Origin: Alphaproteobacteria bacterium
GTDB lineage: Bacteria; Pseudomonadota; Alphaproteobacteria; RF32; CAG-239
Direction of reading: 5' to 3'
DNA: 64,000 nt
Assembly: GCA_017465405.1 (NCBI GenBank)
Contig: JAFTWG010000001.1
Span: 126,261-190,260 of the forward strand
The notes under the pieces are model-generated. The model had not been told where the DNA came from and did not search any database. It saw only the letters and a list, made by a program, of their open reading frames with translations. A program made the translations under genes and the position numbers. Below are positions 1-44,452 of the stretch, one piece after another (the first letter of the stretch is position 1; each line of letters opens with the position of its first letter).

Positions 1-198
1 TTTTTTTCCATAGAAGAAAATATACCCAATTTTCTATACTTTTGTGTTTATATGATATAATAAAAACAACAAAAATGCATGTATTTTAATATAAAAGAAC
101 TCAAATACCCCATTTTAATATCAATATAAACATTTTTTTTGCACATCTTGACATTTCGTTTTTTATGTGTTATATGTATATACAATAGGAGTAAGTGT

Positions 199-1467
199 AT
201 GTTATCATCTTTTAAAATTCAAAACTTTAAGTCTATTCTTGATTTGAATTTAGATTTCAAATTTGATGAAGGAAAAGCACCTAACGGATACAAAGAACTA
301 GATACTGTAGTATTTCTTGAGCCGAAAAGGAATAATAGGTATATTCCATGTTTATCTATATACGGAGCCAATGCTTCTGGCAAAACAAATATTATAAAAG
401 CCTTAGATACATTTAAAGCTATTATAACGTCTCGCATTGACAACCTATATATACCTAATAAAATCAATACTAAATATGTATCGACATTATTCGAACTATC
501 ATTTTTTATAAAAAATAAAGAATATACATATCTGGTAGAGTATAACAAAGATACAATTGTTTTAGAGTCTCTAAAAGAAAATAATGATATTATATTTGAA
601 ATTTCATTAAAAAAACAAAATCTTATAAAAGTTTCAGGTAAAGGATATACTGAGCAACGGTTAAAAGAAATTTTGGATGTAGAATGCTGTGATACTAATA
701 AAAATCAAAAAATAACCTTTTTAAATCGTATAGCCACGAACTATAGCGGATTAAATAAAATCATATCAGATGTATACAAAGCAATAAAGGAAGATATAGA
801 GATATACCCTATAAATATGTTTCCATTATCATTTGGAATGGAAAAACTGGCGGCTTCACAAGATTATAAAGCAATAAATGCATCATTCGAAAAAATTACA
901 TCATTGCTAAGAAAATTAGATATTGATATTGAGCGTATGCAACTAGATAGAAACACAACTAAACTTGCTCAACCTATAGATTTGCAATCACAACCCTATA
1001 GCATATCGATAAAAGATAATATTTTATCGGTAGATTATATCTACTCATACCATAAGGATATTGATGGTAATGAGGTTAAATTTAAATTTACAGAAGAATC
1101 TGAAGGTACTCAAATAATAGCAGGTTTATTAGGTATATTTTTATCAGCTTTAGATAGAGGAGCAACTCTTATTATTGATGAATTAGAACGTTCTTTGCAT
1201 CCCTTATTATTAACTGAGGTTGTCAGATTATTTAAAGACAAGAGATATAATCGTAAAAATGCACAATTAATATTTACTGCTCATAATACAGATATTTTAG
1301 ATGCTGATTTATTAAGAATTTCTGAAATTGGCGTTGTAAAGAAAAATGCTAATAAAGGAACTGTATTAACAAGAGTTTCTTCTTTTGAGGGAATTAGAAA
1401 TGTAACCAATTTCAGAAAACAATACCTAAATGGTGCTTTCTCTGGTATTCCGCACCCTTATATATAA
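199..1467 (+). CDS. AAA/ABC-type ATPase, AbiLi-like (AAA_21 family); track ORF begins at 139 but the ATG at 199 has an AGGAG RBS
   Basis: Walker A 'GANASGKTN', Walker B 'LIIDELERSLHP', H-loop-like 'FTAHN'. N-terminus 'FKIQNFKSI' is typical of AAA_15/21 starts. An RloB-like gene follows immediately. Confidence 0.6.
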   Translation: MLSSFKIQNFKSILDLNLDFKFDEGKAPNGYKELDTVVFLEPKRNNRYIPCLSIYGANASGKTNIIKALDTFKAIITSRIDNLYIPNKINTKYVSTLFELSFFIKNKEYTYLVEYNKDTIVLESLKENNDIIFEISLKKQNLIKVSGKGYTEQRLKEILDVECCDTNKNQKITFLNRIATNYSGLNKIISDVYKAIKEDIEIYPINMFPLSFGMEKLAASQDYKAINASFEKITSLLRKLDIDIERMQLDRNTTKLAQPIDLQSQPYSISIKDNILSVDYIYSYHKDIDGNEVKFKFTEESEGTQIIAGLLGIFLSALDRGATLIIDELERSLHPLLLTEVVRLFKDKRYNRKNAQLIFTAHNTDILDADLLRISEIGVVKKNANKGTVLTRVSSFEGIRNVTNFRKQYLNGAFSGIPHPYI

Positions 1468-1478
1468 GGATAGAAAAA

Positions 1479-2057
1479 ATGAATTATCCCAAGAATGTAT
1501 ACATTATTATATGCGAAGGTCCTTCAGAAAAAGCGTATTTGCAAGAACTTAATCGCTATCTAGAAGATAATGATTATCCAGTTACAATCGTCCCCAAAAC
1601 AATAAACAATGGGCATTTTAAGCCTGCTCAAATAAAATTTAATGAAGTTAAAAAGCAAAATCCTAAAGATATCATTTATATTTGGGTTGATAAGGATACT
1701 TATATTAGGAATGATGAAGGCGATGGGGAAAAATATAATAAAAAGCCTAAGAATATTCCCGATTTTCATTTTAATTATCATAATTTTGAAGACTTTTTAG
1801 CTATGCATATGCCTGATGATATTTTATCTAATTGGCAAGAAATATGTAGAAAAAAGAACCATTTTAACAAACCTTTACATGCAAATATTTACGAACCATT
1901 ATATAAGCAAAACATTATTAATGATTATGAAAAGGGTTCTATGCCTTTTCCAATAACAAAAGAACAAATTATCAATGCATTAAAAAATCAAAAAGATACC
2001 TCCGTCTTATTTAAGAGTGATTTTTTAAATTTATTAGATGATTTGATAAAAAAATAA
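1479..2057 (+). CDS. RloB/AbiLii-like Toprim-superfamily protein, partner of the upstream ATPase
   Basis: N-terminal 'IIICEGPSEKAYL' matches the RloB CEGxTE-type motif. A downstream acidic 'IWVDKD' is consistent with Toprim DxD. It lies 11 bp after the ATPase stop. Confidence 0.5.
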   Translation: MNYPKNVYIIICEGPSEKAYLQELNRYLEDNDYPVTIVPKTINNGHFKPAQIKFNEVKKQNPKDIIYIWVDKDTYIRNDEGDGEKYNKKPKNIPDFHFNYHNFEDFLAMHMPDDILSNWQEICRKKNHFNKPLHANIYEPLYKQNIINDYEKGSMPFPITKEQIINALKNQKDTSVLFKSDFLNLLDDLIKK

Positions 2058-2077: not shown

Positions 2078-2383
2078 TTACATATACTTTCTAACCAAAC
2101 CTTGAATTTCAGCGGCAAGACCGGCAGCCTTAAGGAGTTTGTTATGTTTGTTGCTTTTATCCGTCATATTAAAATATGCATATAGTAACATATTTGAGAC
2201 TAAATCTGCCTTTTCCATAATCTCTTTGATAAGGTCTTCAAATGTGCCGTTATAGGCTTCGGATAAGATTTTATAACTTTTAATCTTTTTATGGTTTTGC
2301 TTCAAAAACTCGTGCAAACCGTTAATATTATTGAAGTTTTTATATCCTTTGCGATTTGTAATTGTCTCAATCAACACCTTCAT
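2078..2383 (-). CDS. hypothetical protein (101 aa)
   Basis: ORF with no recognisable motif; transcribed divergently from the 2531 ORF. Confidence 0.3.
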   Translation of the reverse strand: MKVLIETITNRKGYKNFNNINGLHEFLKQNHKKIKSYKILSEAYNGTFEDLIKEIMEKADLVSNMLLYAYFNMTDKSNKHNKLLKAAGLAAEIQGLVRKYM

Positions 2384-2530: not shown

Positions 2531-3379
2531 ATGAGTATAGAAGACGAGATTAAAGCCTCTAAAGATTATTTGTTAACATTTGTTAGAGAAGATATAAAAA
2601 TACCAATACTTACTATTGATAATGTTGCCAGAGTTGAAGCAATGATACAAGTAGATTCAAGATATTCTAATAATAGAGATGAATATAATGGAGAGACTTC
2701 TTCAAATTTTTTTCATAAATTAAAAGAAATATTAAAAGATAAAGAAGAATTAAAAGATAATGAAAACACTTTAGAGACTTGTATTTATCAAATAGTACGC
2801 ACAATAGATAAGGAAAACAGCACTCATTTAAATTCAAATATAAGAGCAGAGGATGCTAAAGGTGATAATATAAAAAAAACAGGAAGGTACCTAATAGCAG
2901 ATAAAATCCTGCAGTTTAATAAAAAACGTTTTCTGGAGCATTTAACAAATCCCGACAAAGCATTAAAAGAAGATGGTCTTTTTCGAATAATTGAAATAAG
3001 TGGCGGACGTAAAAATACTTCTTTTGCCAGTAAATTTTGTCATTATGCATGTTTTAACTTATTTGATGATAAGAACAAAGACAATTATTCAATTTATGAC
3101 GCCGTAATAAGGATGGCTTTACCTATTTACATCAAGTGGCATAAAGTTACCGTTGAAAACATCAATTATAAGAATGAATATCGTAAAATAAGGAATGCTT
3201 TATGTAGAATAGATTATAAATTATATCAAACTATTGTTGATACTGTTCTAAAGGCTTCCGAAAGTGATATTAGTAGAAACGGATTTGACCATTTATTATG
3301 GTACTATTTCAAAGGAAAAAATGAGCAAGAAATAGAAGAAATCTACAACAGTATAGATACCATGAACAATTCTAAATAA
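2531..3379 (+). CDS. hypothetical protein (282 aa), possible abortive-infection-type protein
   Basis: Clean ORF with an upstream 'aggaaaataagcaATG' RBS and no family recognised; the role is suggested only by the island context. Confidence 0.35.
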   Translation: MSIEDEIKASKDYLLTFVREDIKIPILTIDNVARVEAMIQVDSRYSNNRDEYNGETSSNFFHKLKEILKDKEELKDNENTLETCIYQIVRTIDKENSTHLNSNIRAEDAKGDNIKKTGRYLIADKILQFNKKRFLEHLTNPDKALKEDGLFRIIEISGGRKNTSFASKFCHYACFNLFDDKNKDNYSIYDAVIRMALPIYIKWHKVTVENINYKNEYRKIRNALCRIDYKLYQTIVDTVLKASESDISRNGFDHLLWYYFKGKNEQEIEEIYNSIDTMNNSK

Positions 3380-3603: not shown

Positions 3604-4137
3604 ATGAATACGAATATTTCGCATCCGAATATGGTGCAAGCGCTTATGAAAGCGTTATATCAAAACAATTTGCCCACAATTACAGATTTATTGAACCAAG
3701 GAGTTAATGTTAATCTACCATATAACGATAACGGCTGGACACCTTTTATGTGGGTATGTAAAGAGTTTTACGAAACTGATGTTGTCAAAATGTTCTTGGC
3801 TTATGGTGGCAATATTCATTCTCGCAACAAAGCCGGTGAAACTCCATTTATGATTGCTGCTAAAAAACGAAGCAATCCGGACACATTAGATGTTTTGCTT
3901 AAAGAAGGAAGCGATATTAACGCTCAAGATAATTCCGGAAATACTGCTCTTATGAAAGTAGTTCAACATCCGCAAGCAATGATGCGTTTATGTGTAATTG
4001 AGTTTCTTATCAAAAACGGTGCCGATGTTGATATTAAAAACAATGAAGGCAAAGATATTTGGGACTATGTCGATAATCATAAAGGCTTAAATGAGTTTAT
4101 CCTTTGTACATTGTTAGAGAGGTGTGCAAATGACTAA
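3604..4137 (+). CDS. ankyrin-repeat protein (177 aa)
   Basis: Repeats 'GWTPFMWVCKE', 'GETPFMIAAKK', 'GNTALMKVV' and 'KNGADVDIKNNEGKD' match the ANK consensus. RBS 'aaaggagatttaaATG'. Confidence 0.65.
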   Translation: MNTNISHPNMVQALMKALYQNNLPTITDLLNQGVNVNLPYNDNGWTPFMWVCKEFYETDVVKMFLAYGGNIHSRNKAGETPFMIAAKKRSNPDTLDVLLKEGSDINAQDNSGNTALMKVVQHPQAMMRLCVIEFLIKNGADVDIKNNEGKDIWDYVDNHKGLNEFILCTLLERCAND

Positions 4138-4456
4138 TATTCAAGAGATAGCAAGATTAAACGATGAGTTTAGAGCCAATCCATCAAAAGGAGTACTGAT
4201 TTTAACTCAAGGTATCAGATGTAATTCTTCAGAAGATATTGCAACCATTATCAACAAAGTGCGCAATTTCAATGACTTTAATAAAGACAATAATCCATAC
4301 GGTGAAAAAGATTTTGGAGCGTTTGAATTTAAGGGAAAGAAGATTTTCTGGAAAATTGATTATTATGACCGAGAACTTCTTTACATCTCGCCCGATGCCT
4401 GCAACCCAAAACTGACAAACCGTGTACTTACCATAATGTATGCAGATGAATACTAG
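4124..4456 (+). CDS. DUF3768-like small protein (110 aa); overlaps the ankyrin gene by 14 nt
   Basis: Motifs 'IARLNDEFR', 'NNPYGEKDFGAFEF' and 'FWKIDYYD', as remembered for DUF3768 proteins of plasmids and phages. Confidence 0.45.
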   Translation: MQMTNIQEIARLNDEFRANPSKGVLILTQGIRCNSSEDIATIINKVRNFNDFNKDNNPYGEKDFGAFEFKGKKIFWKIDYYDRELLYISPDACNPKLTNRVLTIMYADEY

Positions 4457-4687: not shown

Positions 4688-5272
4688 ATGACAAACAGTG
4701 AATTTGTAGATGATAAGAAAATTAAGGACATTTTGAACTTTATAAAATCAATGAAACATGCCGAGCAAATAAGAATGATGTTTCTTTGTTCCTTAAACGG
4801 TATGCGTTCAATCAATTTTGCATATTTGCAAGTAAAAGATGTTTTTAATGATGAGTTAAAAGTAAAAGACGTAATATGTCTTGATTATGATAAGAACAAA
4901 GGCAAGAACAAGTGCGAATATTATATGAACAGTCAATTAAAGAAAGAGTTTTGCGAATATTTGAAATATCTTCAAAACAAATGGGCTGATAAACTTTCGC
5001 CGGAAACATATCTGTTTACAAGCCAAAAACTCAATAAACCATATAACCGAGCATCAATAAGCAGGATGTTCAGTTCAATTTATAAAAAGTTCAACATTAA
5101 AGGGGCAAGCCATTTAGGCAGGCACTTGTTTGTATCAAAGTTGGTAAACTCCGGAGTTAATATCTGTTTGGTGCAAAAACTGGCTAATCATAAAAACATA
5201 TCAACTACACAGCATTACTTCAATTATAACCAACAAATGCTTGCCAATGCCGTAGAGAATGTGAAGATATGA
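4688..5272 (+). CDS. tyrosine recombinase (phage-integrase family), catalytic domain only; N-terminal core-binding domain absent
   Basis: Catalytic residues are seen: Arg in 'NGMRSINF', 'HLGRHLF' (HxxR) and 'HKNISTTQHY' (H...Y nucleophile). At 194 aa it is too short to include the SAM-like N-domain. Confidence 0.55.
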   Translation: MTNSEFVDDKKIKDILNFIKSMKHAEQIRMMFLCSLNGMRSINFAYLQVKDVFNDELKVKDVICLDYDKNKGKNKCEYYMNSQLKKEFCEYLKYLQNKWADKLSPETYLFTSQKLNKPYNRASISRMFSSIYKKFNIKGASHLGRHLFVSKLVNSGVNICLVQKLANHKNISTTQHYFNYNQQMLANAVENVKI

Positions 5273-6163: not shown

Positions 6164-6400
6164 AACTATTAATTATCAAAATTCTCACCTCTCAAAATGT
6201 TAAACAATGTTTGAAATTCTAACAAAGTTTAACATTTTTATTTTACTCATAAGCCCTACCCTATAAAAACACTAGGAAAACTGTCTATTACAAAGAAAAT
6301 GTTAAAGAAGGAATATTCTTTAACATTTTTATTTTTTTGCTTGTAATATAATTTAAATTAGTATAATATGGATTATATTAAATAATATATGAGGTGGATT

Positions 6401-7801
6401 ATGGAATTTATCGGAAGAACGAAAGAGCTTAAAGATTTAGAGCAAGAATATAAAAATAAACATTCCTTTGTGGTTTTGTATGGTCGGCGCAGAATTGGAA
6501 AAACCGAACTGATTAAGCAATTTATTAAAGATAAACCTGCTCTTTATTTTTTGGCAACGGAAGAGGCTGAACCACAGTGTATGAAAAGATTTTCGGCATC
6601 TTTAGCAGAATTTACCAAACAAGAATATTTAAAAAATGCAAACTTTAACGATTGGATAGAATTGTTTAAGATTTTTGCCGATGTGCAAAATAACCAAACT
6701 AAGATATTGGTTTTAGATGAATTTCAATATTTGGTGAATACTAATCCTGCATTTACCTCTGTATTTCAAAAAGTTTGGGATGAAGTCTTATCAAAAAAGG
6801 ACATAATGGTTATCATCTGCGGTTCTTATATCAATATGATGACACGTCAAGTTTTATCTGAAAAAAGCCCTCTATATGGTCGCCGCACCGCACAAATAAG
6901 ATTAGCGCCACTATCGTTTTGTGAAATTCAAGAGCACTATGCAACAGTTCCTTTTGCCGAATTGGTAGAACAATATGCCGTTACCGGAGGTGTTCCGAAA
7001 TATATGGAATTTTTTGCCAACGACAGTACACTGATGGAAAACATTGCCAGAACAGTTCTGAATACGAACGGTTTTTTGTATGATGAACCGGCATTTTTGC
7101 TCAATAAGGAAGTTAAGGAACCGGTTAACTATTACTCCATAATGAAAGTTATTGCAGCTGAAAATCACAAACTATCGGAAATAGCTTCGGCAATGCAAGT
7201 AGAAAGTAACCGTTTAACACCATATTTGGAAACCTTGCAGGGTTTGTATTTGTTGGAAAAACGTGTTCCGGTAACAGAAAACAACCCGGAAAAAAGCCGT
7301 AAAGGTCTTTATGTTATGCGAGATATTTTTATGCGTTTTTGGTTTAAGTTTGTATTTCCTTACAAAGGAGAACTTGAACTGGATAACCTTAATTTTGTTT
7401 TAAGTAAGCTGAATGAACATTTTATTGATAATCATGTTGCTTTTGTTTATGAAGATATTTGCCGTAACATATTTGCCGAACTATGCAAAAAAAGACTGAT
7501 TGATTTTGTGCCGTCACGTATCGGTTCATATTGGGGTAAAAACGAAGAAATTGATTTGGTTGCCGTAGATGAAAGCAATAAGCGTATTTTTGCAGCGGAA
7601 TGCAAATATTACAAAGATGACAAACCGGTTGATGTAGGGGTTTTCGCAAAATTACAAGAAAAGTGCAAGACTAAAGATTTTTCCGGAAACGACATTACTT
7701 ACGGGCTATTCTCCAAGAGTGGTTTTACTAGCCGTTTAAAAGAAATTGCCGCCGGAAATGATAAATTAATATTAATTAACGGCGTAAAACTGGAAAAGTA
7801 A
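6401..7801 (+). CDS. ATP-binding protein, archaeal-type ATPase with DUF234 C-terminal domain
   Basis: Walker A 'LYGRRRIGKTELI', Walker B 'ILVLDEFQYL', and a C-terminal region typical of DUF234. RBS 'gaggtggattATG' at 6401; the track starts at 6389. Confidence 0.6.
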   Translation: MEFIGRTKELKDLEQEYKNKHSFVVLYGRRRIGKTELIKQFIKDKPALYFLATEEAEPQCMKRFSASLAEFTKQEYLKNANFNDWIELFKIFADVQNNQTKILVLDEFQYLVNTNPAFTSVFQKVWDEVLSKKDIMVIICGSYINMMTRQVLSEKSPLYGRRTAQIRLAPLSFCEIQEHYATVPFAELVEQYAVTGGVPKYMEFFANDSTLMENIARTVLNTNGFLYDEPAFLLNKEVKEPVNYYSIMKVIAAENHKLSEIASAMQVESNRLTPYLETLQGLYLLEKRVPVTENNPEKSRKGLYVMRDIFMRFWFKFVFPYKGELELDNLNFVLSKLNEHFIDNHVAFVYEDICRNIFAELCKKRLIDFVPSRIGSYWGKNEEIDLVAVDESNKRIFAAECKYYKDDKPVDVGVFAKLQEKCKTKDFSGNDITYGLFSKSGFTSRLKEIAAGNDKLILINGVKLEK

Positions 7802-8181: not shown

Positions 8182-9396
8182 ATGTTTACATTGTTAGAAT
8201 TATTCAAAAATATAAACACAACCAAGGCATATTTTTTAGGAGCATTGATAACAGCAAATGAATGCTATATACAGGATAATATAAAATATTGGTCCGTACC
8301 GATAAGACATAATCCTGGACAAGCAACTCCTCACGAACTAAAACAGCACTATAATTTCCTAAAAGTACTGTCTAGAAAGGTTAATGGAAATATTTTAACA
8401 TCTGATATTTTGGGAAATAAAATGGGATTTGCTTCAGGAAAGCAAGGTTTTGCTGTTTTATTTACAAGTGATTTAAAAACAAATTTATCATCAATATTAC
8501 AAGCATCTCAGGTAATATTAACAATGAATTCAGATATAAAAAGATCTTTTTTAATTGGTGTTTTTGATGGGAGATCTTCTCTGGATAAAAATAGTACAAC
8601 GGACGAAATACGAAATATAGCGGTTGATTGTGAAGATAAAGCTGGACATGATATTATTTCATCGATCTTGTCTGATTTTGGAATTACCCCATTAAATCAA
8701 AACGAATCTCGAGAAAGATTGGAAGGCGGTAGACCCAGAAAAAATCAGTTAAGAATTCCTAAAAAGTATGTCTCTGAGTTTGCGACCAATATTGGTTTTA
8801 TTTCTCCTCTGAGATTTAAAGCATTTAAAAATAGCTTTTCTGAAATAATTCCTTATATAAAGAATGAAGACTCTTTATTACCAGGTTTAAAAAGTCTTTC
8901 TTATACCCAGACAGAAGATACCATAGAAGAAAATAAACTTGATGATTTGGTTATAAAAAGCACTAATATTGATAATATTAATCCTATTCTCCATACTTAT
9001 TCAGGGATTGCCAAACCCAAACCTGAACCTATTGTCTCTAAAGGACGTAAATTATATGCAAGAAATCCTCAAACAGCAGTTAATGCTTTAACATTGGCAT
9101 CCTACAAGTGTGAAATTGATGGTAATCACTACACGTTTATTAGAAAGAAAAATAACAAACCCTACACAGAACCTCATCACTTAGTACCCATGGCGTTTTC
9201 TGAAAGATTTGATGTTTCTCTTGATGTAGAAGAAAATATTGTGTCCTTATGCAGTAACTGTCATAATTTTTTGCACTATGGACGTGATGCAAAAGAGCTG
9301 TTAAATATTCTTTACCCAAAACGAAAAAATATGCTAGCTAACGTAGGTATAGATATTGATATAGATGACTTGTATGAAATGTACAACTTAGATTAA
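8182..9396 (+). CDS. putative restriction endonuclease: N-terminal LAGLIDADG-like double motif plus C-terminal HNH nuclease
   Basis: C-terminal 'CEIDGNH...EPHHLVP...LCSNCHNFLH' is an HNH motif. The N-terminus carries 'AYFLGALITANEC' and 'SFLIGVFDGRSSL' about 105 aa apart, which is the LAGLIDADG spacing. It converges on and overlaps the m5C methyltransferase stop by 4 nt. Confidence 0.5.
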   Translation: MFTLLELFKNINTTKAYFLGALITANECYIQDNIKYWSVPIRHNPGQATPHELKQHYNFLKVLSRKVNGNILTSDILGNKMGFASGKQGFAVLFTSDLKTNLSSILQASQVILTMNSDIKRSFLIGVFDGRSSLDKNSTTDEIRNIAVDCEDKAGHDIISSILSDFGITPLNQNESRERLEGGRPRKNQLRIPKKYVSEFATNIGFISPLRFKAFKNSFSEIIPYIKNEDSLLPGLKSLSYTQTEDTIEENKLDDLVIKSTNIDNINPILHTYSGIAKPKPEPIVSKGRKLYARNPQTAVNALTLASYKCEIDGNHYTFIRKKNNKPYTEPHHLVPMAFSERFDVSLDVEENIVSLCSNCHNFLHYGRDAKELLNILYPKRKNMLANVGIDIDIDDLYEMYNLD

Positions 9397-10448
9397 TCTT
9401 CATTTAGGAGAATTGTTTCAGCTATTGCCTTTGCTAATAAAGGAGGAACGGCGTTACCGACTTGTAGCATCTGGTCCATTTTCTTTCCATAAAAAATAAA
9501 ATTATCTGGAAAAGACTGTAATCTTGCTGCTTCCCTAACAGTGAGACATCTATCCTGAAATGGCAAGGTAAATTGTCCTGATGCAGGGGTGTCAAAGCGA
9601 GTTGTTATTGTTCTTGAAAAACCTTTAGGATTCATTCGCGTCCATGTACCACTATAAATAGATTTTGTTTGTTGGTCTTTAGGTAAATCATTTTTAGTGC
9701 TAGTTAACGTAACTAATTTTAATCTATCTAAAGCTATTTTACTATGCTTTGTTGAGATATGATTCCATACTCCATCTGACTTTATCCTCATAAGTTTTTG
9801 GTAATCACTTTTGGGCTGTTGCGTATATGGAACAAATTCTAGACCTTCGCCTGATTTTAAGATTGGCAAATCAGATATAGCATCTTCTACACAAGTTACC
9901 ATATGATTAGTATTAGGTAGTCTGTACCTTAAGTCACTGCCTAATTTACCTAAAAAAACAGCGCGTCTTCTTATTTGAGGAACTCCAAAATCTTCAGCCT
10001 TTAATATTTTTACATCAATATAATATCCTAATTCACCAAAACTATGAATAATCTGTTCTTTAAAATATCCATTTTCTGCTGTTAAAATATTTGGAACATT
10101 TTCTAACACAAAAAACTTAGGCTTAACAACTGAAACAACTTCGACAAACTTTTTGAACATAAAATTACGTTCGTCGTTTAGTCCTATCCTTTTTCCTTTT
10201 TGTGAAAATCCCTGACATGGCGGTCCTCCCATGACAACATCAATCTGATCCACATATTTTGAAAACTCTTTTACTATATCTATATCTCTAATATCCCTAG
10301 AATCAACTATAGTATCTGGATGATTTTTTTTATAAGCATTTGCAATACTTTTATTATATTCATTAGCCCAAAGTACTTTAAATCCAGCTAATTCAAATCC
10401 TAAAGACAGACCGCCAACACCAGCAAACAGATCAATAGCTGTTTTCAC
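9393..10448 (-). CDS. DNA (cytosine-5)-methyltransferase
   Basis: Motif I 'DLFAGVGGLSLGF', motif IV 'GGPPCQGFS' and an 'ENV' motif. Confidence 0.85.
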   Translation of the reverse strand: MKTAIDLFAGVGGLSLGFELAGFKVLWANEYNKSIANAYKKNHPDTIVDSRDIRDIDIVKEFSKYVDQIDVVMGGPPCQGFSQKGKRIGLNDERNFMFKKFVEVVSVVKPKFFVLENVPNILTAENGYFKEQIIHSFGELGYYIDVKILKAEDFGVPQIRRRAVFLGKLGSDLRYRLPNTNHMVTCVEDAISDLPILKSGEGLEFVPYTQQPKSDYQKLMRIKSDGVWNHISTKHSKIALDRLKLVTLTSTKNDLPKDQQTKSIYSGTWTRMNPKGFSRTITTRFDTPASGQFTLPFQDRCLTVREAARLQSFPDNFIFYGKKMDQMLQVGNAVPPLLAKAIAETILLNED

Positions 10449-11176
10449 TTAAACCCTCCCAATTTTCTAGTTGCAATATCATAATATTGCTCTTCCAGCT
10501 CTATCCCGTAAAAGCGTCTTTTTGCCTTTAATGCAGCTAACCCTGTAGAACCACTTCCCATAAAAGGATCTAGTACCAAATCGTTCTCATTTGTTAGTAG
10601 CTTTATAAAATGAGATAAAATTTCTTCTGGTTTCTGCGTTGGATGTTTGCCTTCTTTTTGTTCTTTAGCACTAATAACAGCTGATTCTATATAATCATGA
10701 ACAATTTTGCCTTCATTATTGAAAGTACCTGTTTTTCCTTGATTTATAAAATAAATCCAAGCTTCTGTTGAATTGATAAAATGTAGATTCATATTTCTTG
10801 GCATAGGATTTTTTTTATGCCAAATTCCAGTGGTTTTATAATAGAAACCATATTTTTCAGCAATATGAATGATTGTTTCTACTCTTATAATCGACATAAA
10901 CATTATCATAGCGCCACGCTTTTTTAAAACTCTTGCGCTTTCTTGGAAGAATTTATTCATCAATTCCTCCCATTTATCAGCTGCGGCAAAATCCCAATTT
11001 GATGCTGAAAAATGGTTTTTCCTTAATGCTCCAAGGTTTGTTTCTCTATTTTTCATAAACAATCCAAGATTATAAGGAGGATCAGTAAGTATGAGATCAA
11101 CACTTCTATCTCGTATGTCATGCATTTCTGACACACAATCACCTAAACCTAAGACATATTCCTTTTCTTTAATCAT
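10445..11176 (-). CDS. DNA methyltransferase, beta-class N6-adenine/N4-cytosine
   Basis: 'LILTDPPYN' (motif IV) precedes 'DPFMGSGSTG' (motif I). There is a 4-nt ATGA overlap with the downstream m5C methyltransferase. Confidence 0.8.
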   Translation of the reverse strand: MIKEKEYVLGLGDCVSEMHDIRDRSVDLILTDPPYNLGLFMKNRETNLGALRKNHFSASNWDFAAADKWEELMNKFFQESARVLKKRGAMIMFMSIIRVETIIHIAEKYGFYYKTTGIWHKKNPMPRNMNLHFINSTEAWIYFINQGKTGTFNNEGKIVHDYIESAVISAKEQKEGKHPTQKPEEILSHFIKLLTNENDLVLDPFMGSGSTGLAALKAKRRFYGIELEEQYYDIATRKLGGFK

Positions 11177-29937: not shown

Positions 29938-30014
29938 TGGCGGGAGTGACGAGGCTCGAACTCGCGACCTCCTGCGTGACAGGCAGGCGCTCTAACCAAC
30001 TGAGCTACACCCCC
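29938..30014 (-). tRNA. tRNA-Asp (GUC)
   Basis: Reverse complement reads 'GGGGGTGTAGCTCAGTTGGTTAGAGCGCCTGCCTGTCACGCAGGAGGTCGCGAGTTCGAGCCTCGTCACTCCCGCCA'. Anticodon stem cctgc/gcagg with loop ctGTCac, T-loop TTCGAGC, and an encoded CCA. Confidence 0.8.
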
Positions 30015-44376: not shown

Positions 44377-44395
44377 TGGCAGGGGCAGTAAGATT
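44369..44395. repeat. direct repeat copy 2 (part of tRNA-Trp 3' end)
   Basis: See copy 1. Confidence 0.7.
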
Positions 44396-44452
44396 CGAAC
44401 TCACGACACTCGGTTTTGGAGACCGATGCTCTACCAACTGAGCTATACCCCT
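44377..44452 (-). tRNA. tRNA-Trp (CCA)
   Basis: Reverse complement 'AGGGGTATAGCTCAGTTGGTAGAGCATCGGTCTCCAAAACCGAGTGTCGTGAGTTCGAATCTTACTGCCCCTGCCA'. Anticodon stem tcggt/accga with loop ctCCAaa, T-loop TTCGAAT, and an encoded CCA. Confidence 0.85.

Follow-up and report, generated by a model that had tools for sequence, protein, structure and literature searches.

The window, by which we mean the whole stretch of 64,000 nucleotides that was analyzed (contig JAFTWG010000001.1, positions 126,261 to 190,260), carries two co-directional genes on its forward strand close to its first nucleotide. The first gene, ORF1, lies at 199–1467 and encodes an ABC ATPase of 422 aa and 48 kDa that is AbiLi/RloA-like and of the SMC/Rad50-like AAA_21/AAA_15 type. 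The second gene, ORF2, lies at 1479–2057 and is the presumed effector gene, with a product of 192 aa and 23 kDa that is predicted to be a divergent Toprim nuclease of the RloB/AbiLii type. Open reading frames as long as these (422 and 192 codons) are not due to chance at a GC content of 26–28%, and identical or related proteins are encoded on many public contigs. The ATG of ORF1 at 199 follows a Shine-Dalgarno-like AGGAG (187–191, forward strand, as read from the sequence) at a distance of 7 nt. We preferred this start codon over the TTG at 139, and thus rejected a longer ORF1 (139–1467), because the N-terminus MLSxF is common to all 44 aligned homologs. Proteins identical to both are recorded on a metagenome-assembled contig of 713 kb with the label 'Alphaproteobacteria bacterium', where ORF1 is annotated as 'ATP-binding protein'.

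The second gene had been predicted to lie 11 bp downstream of the first, and this spacing is exact (1468–1478). The sequence AAGGA at 1466–1470 on the forward strand, which reads as the ribosome-binding site of ORF2, overlaps the stop codon of ORF1, and this overlap suggests that ORF2 is translationally coupled to ORF1. Promoter and terminator scans of positions 1–2600 gave 17 promoter-like sites, with 18.6 expected, and no terminator. By eye, a TTGACA is present at 148–153 with a TATATG 17 nt downstream, which we do not claim as a promoter. Rfam showed no RNA family within the pair or close to it; its only matches were two tRNAs, located at 29.9 kb and 44.4 kb. The antisense ORFs at 219–548, 1560–1781, and 1642–1800 were taken as chance ORFs inside coding regions.

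The original prediction had placed Walker A, Walker B, and H-loop motifs in the first protein. All three are indeed present, and their key residues are invariant in the alignment of ORF1 with 44 homologs of 45–88% identity. The Walker A motif (P-loop) GANASGKT is encoded at 364–387 (residues 56–63, with G56, N58, G61, and K62 invariant), the Walker B motif LIIDE at 1168–1182 (residues 324–328, with D327 and E328 invariant), and the H-loop FTAHN at 1273–1287 (residues 359–363, with H362 invariant), all on the forward strand. The same alignment revealed an ABC signature-like SEGTQ at 1099–1113 on the forward strand (residues 301–305, with S301, G303, and T304 invariant) and, just after Walker B, a D-loop SLH (residues 332–334 of ORF1, with S332 and H334 invariant). 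ORF1 ends with the C-terminal tail FRKQYLNGAFSGIPHPYI (1411–1464, forward strand, residues 405–422), which is nearly invariant in the 44 homologs and of which the G-x-F-G-x-IP part is kept even in a Lactococcus prophage homolog. In the predicted structure, the confidence falls in this region, with block pLDDT values of 75 to 37 over residues 401–422. Near-invariance together with low predicted confidence would fit a docking peptide, and the tail is thus a possible candidate for such a role.

ORF1 belongs to the families that had been proposed for it, as it passed the Pfam cut-offs of both AAA_21 (4.4e-29, 103 bits, cut-off 27) and AAA_15 (1.1e-8, 35.6 bits, cut-off 32.1). Among the 44 families matched in PADLOC, AbiLi (PDLC02335) was by far the best with 8.1e-69 and 230 bits, about 130 bits above AriA of PARIS, for which the models gave 1.9e-28 and 7.3e-11. 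HEC-01A, PDC-M12A, mad3, PtuA, and GajA followed with lower scores, GajA only weakly. NCBIfam has no model that matches either ORF1 or ORF2, and the PHROGs family that matches ORF1, phrog_5836, has no function assigned there. An AlphaFold2 model of ORF1, built on the 44 homologs, reached a pLDDT of 88, and its top Foldseek matches were Rad50, SMC/cohesin heads, the SMC-like ATPase of retron-IA, PtuA of Septu, and the OLD protein of Thermus. The OLD protein of Thermus scotoductus was also the only solved structure that matched ORF1 by sequence (PDB search, E 0.0016). As it was in principle possible that ORF1 is the ATPase of an ABC transporter, we considered three aspects that bear on this identity. 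The Pfam scan of ORF1 gave no match to ABC_tran, no transporter was among the top 50 structural matches of the model, and no permease gene adjoins the pair. Domain scan, fold matches, and gene neighborhood thus rule out a transport ABC ATPase, which the original prediction had named as the finding that would speak against it. Judged by its Pfam and PADLOC matches and by its predicted fold, ORF1 is an SMC/Rad50-like ABC ATPase of the defense-associated AAA_15/21 group.

ORF2 carries the CEGxxE-type N-terminus that had been claimed for the second protein, in the form of CEGPSE (1512–1529, forward strand, residues 12–17). This motif contains the Toprim glutamate E13 directly after strand beta1, plus E17. 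It is followed by WVDKD (1683–1697, forward strand, residues 69–73), which holds the Toprim DxD at the end of beta3, and by NFEDF (1782–1796, forward strand, residues 102–106), an acidic pair after beta4 that the alignment identifies as the counterpart of the CFExW..LH motif of canonical RloB. A word-indexed homolog search with ORF2 found 18 relatives of 37–100% identity. When 1.84 billion cluster representatives were searched exhaustively with a profile, 304 passed E <= 1e-3 and 133 passed E <= 1e-30, nearly all with a length of 190–230 aa. In an alignment of 128 cluster representatives taken from this search, D71, D73, E104, and D105 are invariant, and C12, E13, G14, E17, Y20, H110, H128, P132, Y150, and K152 are conserved to at least 90%. 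A Cys/His metal site (C12, H110, C123, and H128) was rejected, as C123 is not conserved across the wider family.

The original prediction had further assigned the second protein to RloB. A direct match to the Pfam RloB model (PF13707, gathering score 31.5 bits) did not result, even at E <= 10, and this part of the assignment did not hold for ORF2 itself. However, the model is matched by 7 of the 18 close homologs (best 6.2e-10) and by 73 of the 128 cluster representatives at E <= 1e-3 (best 2.6e-12), with 55 of these 128 sampled relatives lacking a match at E <= 0.001. The precomputed annotation of the assembly collection lists a 'weak' RloB match for ORF2. An alignment of the ORF2 family with a canonical RloB by hhalign gave an E-value of 3.6e-5 at a probability of 71%, and the motifs were in register: CEGxSE with (C/S)EGxxTE, WVDxD with WxxxDxD, and NFEDFLxMH with CFExWxLLH. 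The canonical RloB proteins used here, which pair with ATPase relatives on plasmids of Klebsiella, Hymenobacter, and Clostridium, reach 99–138 bits on PF13707. Homology to RloB is thus seen through the relatives of ORF2. The only PADLOC match of ORF2 was AbiLii (PDLC02337) with 1.5e-9 and 36.7 bits, and canonical AbiLii partners score higher on this model (64–100 bits). A tblastn search of 72,556 plasmids with ORF2 returned nothing at E <= 1, which indicates that the canonical plasmid RloB proteins are too distant for pairwise searches. PHROGs had no family for ORF2, and sequence searches of the PDB with ORF2 as a single sequence or with profiles of 18 and 128 sequences gave only chance matches, such as a bile-acid receptor and PDE8A. 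ORF2 is annotated as 'hypothetical protein' in the public record, a label that is explained by the only partial recognition of its clade by the Pfam RloB model.

The AlphaFold2 model of ORF2 is of high confidence (pLDDT 94.6, pTM 0.90) and predicts a core in the order beta1 (6–12), alpha1, beta2 (35–41), alpha2, beta3 (65–71), and beta4 (97–99). Toprim domains, including that of RloB, are defined by a glutamate after beta1 and a DxD after beta3 (PMC12065111). ORF2 has both features in the model as well as in the alignment of the 128 relatives, with E13 right after the beta1 strand and D71-K-D73 at the end of the beta3 strand. Two methods placed Toprim regions of the OLD family at the top of the structural matches of the ORF2 model. 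The first Foldseek matches were 6nk8 and 6njv at modest E-values of 0.016–0.017, close to generic Rossmann-like folds, and the predicted fold on its own is therefore supportive rather than decisive. In combination, fold, motifs, and transitive homology to RloB make the Toprim assignment convincing. The nearest structure of AbiLii itself is also 6NJV, according to a 2026 review of lactococcal Abi systems (PMC13064643).

With both proteins assigned, it can be asked whether the pair is PARIS (AriA/AriB), or a split OLD or Gabija system, instead of AbiL. The logic of an ATPase plus a Toprim protein is common to all of these systems, and AbiL has been placed among the ABC ATPase plus Toprim systems, together with PARIS, OLD, Gabija, and MADS (PMC11464382; for this grouping, see also PMC13064643). 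The matches of ORF1 to the AriA models, its weak match to GajA, and its PDB match to Thermus OLD would agree with such an identity. However, ORF1 clearly prefers AbiLi over AriA, and ORF2 matched neither DUF4435 nor AriB nor OLD-like_TOPRIM in Pfam and PADLOC. ORF2 is also about 100 residues shorter than the 35-kDa AriB. In OLD proteins of class 1 (P2/Thermus) and class 2 (Burkholderia/Xanthomonas), as well as in GajA of Gabija, ATPase and Toprim are fused, whereas they are found here on separate proteins, with a stop codon and 11 bp between the reading frames. The identity of OLD-family nucleases to the present proteins is only 12–14%, and no GajB-like helicase gene adjoins the pair. Taken together, we regard PARIS, OLD, or Gabija as a very improbable identity of the pair and continue with AbiL.

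If the two genes form a functional unit, they should be found together at other loci as well. All examined homologs of the ATPase (45–88% identity) are followed by a gene for an RloB-like protein of 192–198 aa that begins 7–16 bp downstream. The exact 11-bp spacing recurs at loci L001, L005, L011, L017, and L020. The compared loci cover a range of identities to ORF2 (L011–13, 76%; L005–7, 50%; L014–16, 45%) or to the ATPase (L017, 54%; L018–19, 49%; L020–22, 57%), and the RloB-like partners at the ATPase-homolog loci are 47–51% identical to ORF2. The neighborhoods of these loci are mutually unrelated, with a periplasmic binding protein and a NUDIX protein, an efflux pump and a type ISP restriction enzyme, a TPR protein, or HTH/Metallophos proteins, and only the two genes are constant. 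More distant ATPase relatives on plasmids and prophages (below 30% identity) are then followed by proteins that match Pfam RloB or PADLOC AbiLii. These include a pair in a Lactococcus prophage that is annotated 'abortive phage resistance protein'. The assembly collection lists one relative of the ATPase, P0045, in 356 of its blocks, showing that the module is common in metagenomes. As a possible third component, we considered the convergent 101-aa gene at 2078–2383 on the reverse strand. It is conserved (69% identity) in the closest relatives only and absent from distant loci, and hence not part of the core module.

These comparisons also bear on the view that the genes are decaying, non-functional remnants or serve a non-defense housekeeping function, such as DNA repair. 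The Rad50/SMC-like fold of ORF1 and the lack of a direct functional annotation of ORF2 in the public record would be in line with this. However, both ORFs have full length in comparison to their homologs, with every catalytic residue intact, and their patchy, context-independent distribution inside defense islands is typical of defense genes and not of core repair. Decay or a housekeeping role is thus hardly conceivable for the AbiL-type pair.

A defense island extends over the first 11 kb of the window and the 8 kb that precede it on the source contig. On the 5' side of the pair are McrBC, an HSP70-like pair, and an Ank-repeat gene, and the neighbors of the pair are Ank-repeat and small unassigned genes. 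On the 3' side, there is a block of Ank, DUF3768, DUF1737, and tyrosine-recombinase genes, with the integrase-bearing cassette 2.6 kb downstream. A DUF234 ATPase, also downstream, matches the PADLOC candidate PDC-S27 (1.5e-61). An HNH/type IV-like protein and two DNA methyltransferases are encoded 6–9 kb downstream of the pair, and ordinary genes such as NhaA and FadL start past 11.5 kb.

Restriction-modification (R-M) genes in this island raise the question of whether the pair serves as an RloA/RloB-type accessory to an R-M locus, as in the type I hsd locus of Campylobacter, that works only together with neighboring R-M genes. The name RloB derives from type I R-M loci (PMC10440598; PMC12065111), and the upstream McrBC as well as the downstream methyltransferases and HNH/type IV-like protein would suit such a function. 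However, hsdR/M/S genes are absent within 8 kb on either side of the pair, the two methyltransferases are separated from it by seven or more unrelated genes, and there are homologous pairs that lack R-M genes in their vicinity. Given the absence of flanking hsd genes, an R-M-embedded role fails, and we consider it highly implausible.

A somewhat more serious alternative to phage defense as the main role is that of a type II toxin-antitoxin-like addiction module that stabilizes a mobile island, with ORF2 as the toxin and ORF1 as the antitoxin. Other pairs of an AAA ATPase and a TOPRIM_OLD protein act as toxin-antitoxin systems in neutralization assays, with the ATPase neutralizing the toxin in the validated pairs (PMC10440598). 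AbiLii of Fusobacterium nucleatum was toxic in E. coli, but its own AbiLi did not neutralize it (PMC3985639). An Ank/DUF3768/DUF1737/integrase block accompanies the pair in close relatives. However, more distant copies of the pair are surrounded by housekeeping-type genes and have no integrase close by, and an ATPase of 422 aa whose catalytic motifs are all fully conserved goes beyond what simple neutralization requires. Since the pair is also found at a distance from genes of mobile elements, addiction is the less likely main role, and we regard it as improbable. In any case, addiction and defense are compatible and not mutually exclusive.

The AbiLi/AbiLii (RloA/RloB-like) architecture that had been predicted is well borne out by the scores on the AbiLi and AbiLii models, the adjacency of the genes, and their conserved pairing. 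In our view, the two genes are very probably a co-translated AbiL-type (RloA/RloB-like) anti-phage module in a defense island of a low-GC bacterial chromosome, a reading that builds on the observed gene architecture, domain identities, catalytic motifs, pairing, and island context. How such a module could work is proposed here because of the analogy with PARIS, OLD, and AAA-neutralized Toprim toxins, and complex formation, trigger, substrate, and abortive outcome are modeled on these systems. An oligomer of ORF1 would bind the ORF2 nuclease and hold it inactive, and ORF1 would at the same time sense the infection. Release or activation of ORF2 would then be brought about by a trigger from the phage, in a step coupled to the binding or hydrolysis of ATP. 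The acidic cluster of ORF2 (E13/E17, D71/D73, and E104/D105) may coordinate metal ions and cut tRNA or other RNA, or DNA. This cleavage would stop phage production, and the infected cell would be lost.

The ORF2 clade has traits of its own, as the NFED acidic pair is clade-specific and the helical C-terminal half is conserved (H110, H128, Y150, and K152). We tentatively mention that ORF2 could represent a distinct compact sub-type of AbiL effectors with its own substrate or activation mode, for example a specific tRNA, as in the case of AriB, and that the ORF1 tail (…FSGIPxPYI) could latch the nuclease in the inactive state, although we hold this extension of the AbiL reading to be rather doubtful. 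The pair belongs to the known AbiL/RloAB family, and the concept itself is not new. What is added is one more ATPase–Toprim pair of the AbiL/RloAB type, from a poorly studied low-GC bacterium that is known only from metagenome assemblies. Mildly new is that ORF2 falls into a clade of compact RloB-like proteins, with about 300 clusters at 50% identity, which Pfam RloB recognizes only in part. As the pair is small and well predicted, it would also be a convenient experimental model. We know of no AbiL-type system with a solved structure, a known trigger, or a known substrate or tRNA target.

With regard to known systems, the pair shares with PARIS the split arrangement of an ABC ATPase sensor (AriA) and a Toprim effector (AriB, a DUF4435 tRNA nuclease). 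In PARIS, a hexamer of the ATPase sequesters the Toprim nuclease, which is released upon sensing of a phage protein and then cleaves tRNA (PMC11464382). By analogy, PARIS is likely to be a suitable mechanistic template for the pair of ORF1 and ORF2. More closely related are RloA/RloB pairs on plasmids, which have the same gene order, such as the 'ATP-binding protein' and 'RloB family protein' of Clostridium estertheticum pCF008-A or the pair with the 'RloA' of Hymenobacter. Their RloA-type ATPases are 24–30% identical to ORF1 over 99% of the length; the RloB partners are recognized by Pfam RloB, which ORF2 misses.

The best counterpart is AbiL of Lactococcus lactis, a two-gene system that acts after phage transcription (PMC13064643). 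In the AbiL of plasmid pND861 (PADLOC model) and in ORF55/ORF56 of the Lactococcus prophage proPhi7, the two co-directional genes are in the same order, with an ATPase of about 410–460 aa and a Toprim/RloB protein of about 190 aa. The ATPase ORF55, which is AbiLi-like, scores 254 bits on the PADLOC AbiLi model in comparison to 230 bits for ORF1, and the two ATPases are 28% identical. ORF2 and proPhi7 ORF56 both have 192 aa and both match the AbiLii model, with 25% identity over 134 aa. In contrast to canonical AbiLii/RloB, ORF2 is part of a separate short clade that has NFED in place of CFExW, and unlike the plasmid-borne AbiL, the present pair is chromosomal, in a Gram-negative host that is represented by a gut-type MAG.

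The source contig 5' of the window (L001 1-6231, the upstream part of the locus on that contig) encodes McrBC, and an HSP70/MreB-like protein of 473 aa is found there adjoining a 373-aa protein of no assigned kind. A further Ank-repeat gene lies immediately 5' of the gene for the ORF1 ATPase. We therefore conclude that the defence island reaches past the window start on the source contig.

On the other side of the pair, a gene for a 101-aa protein (2078-2383, minus strand) is convergent with ORF2, the two stop codons being separated by 20 bp. Its product had no family match and shares 69% identity with its positional counterpart in L011, a relative's locus; more distant pair-carrying loci are without this gene. 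Immediately 3' of the pair, we also observed a slot of changing content. In the window, it is occupied by a gene for a 282-aa protein (2531-3379, plus strand), for which nothing matched in Pfam, PADLOC, or PHROG, whereas the relatives' loci L011-L013, in which ORF2 is 76% identical, carry a KAP-family NTPase at this position (9057-10550). The 282-aa protein may be an uncharacterised defence cargo gene product. On one side, the slot is bordered by the conserved minus-strand gene of 101/103 aa, and on the other by a block that begins with an Ank-repeat protein (3604-4137, plus strand; PADLOC candidate PDC-M72A, 6.4e-21), whose gene overlaps the start of that for a DUF3768 protein (4124-4456, plus strand). 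A DUF1737 gene and then a short tyrosine recombinase (4688-5272) follow 3' of the DUF3768 gene, and the block is kept in the relatives' loci L012 and L013.

Window 8182-11176 is probably an R-M-like cluster at the end of the defence island. Here, the gene for a 404-aa protein (8182-9396, plus strand), which gave weak LAGLIDADG_3 and HNH matches and a PADLOC type IV restriction match (7e-13), is convergent with two overlapping minus-strand genes for a C5 cytosine methyltransferase (9393-10448) and an N4/N6 methyltransferase (10445-11176). Across the entire 64-kb window, Rfam gave no match except two minus-strand tRNA genes (29941-30014 and 44380-44452).

Within the pair itself, the C-terminal tail of ORF1 (residues 405-422, window 1411-1464; FRKQYLNGAFSGIPHPYI) is near-invariant among 44 homologs and partially retained in a 28% identical homolog from a Lactococcus prophage. 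As AlphaFold confidence falls to 37-55 over this conserved tail, it would fit a putative partner-binding peptide.

The island also encodes a 470-aa ATPase_2/DUF234 protein (6389-7801, plus strand) that matched the PADLOC candidate system PDC-S27 (1.5e-61). Because a homolog of 31% identity also adjoins the AbiL-like pair in L005 and L006, which belong to a different lineage, PDC-S27-like ATPases and AbiL-like pairs may tend towards co-localisation.
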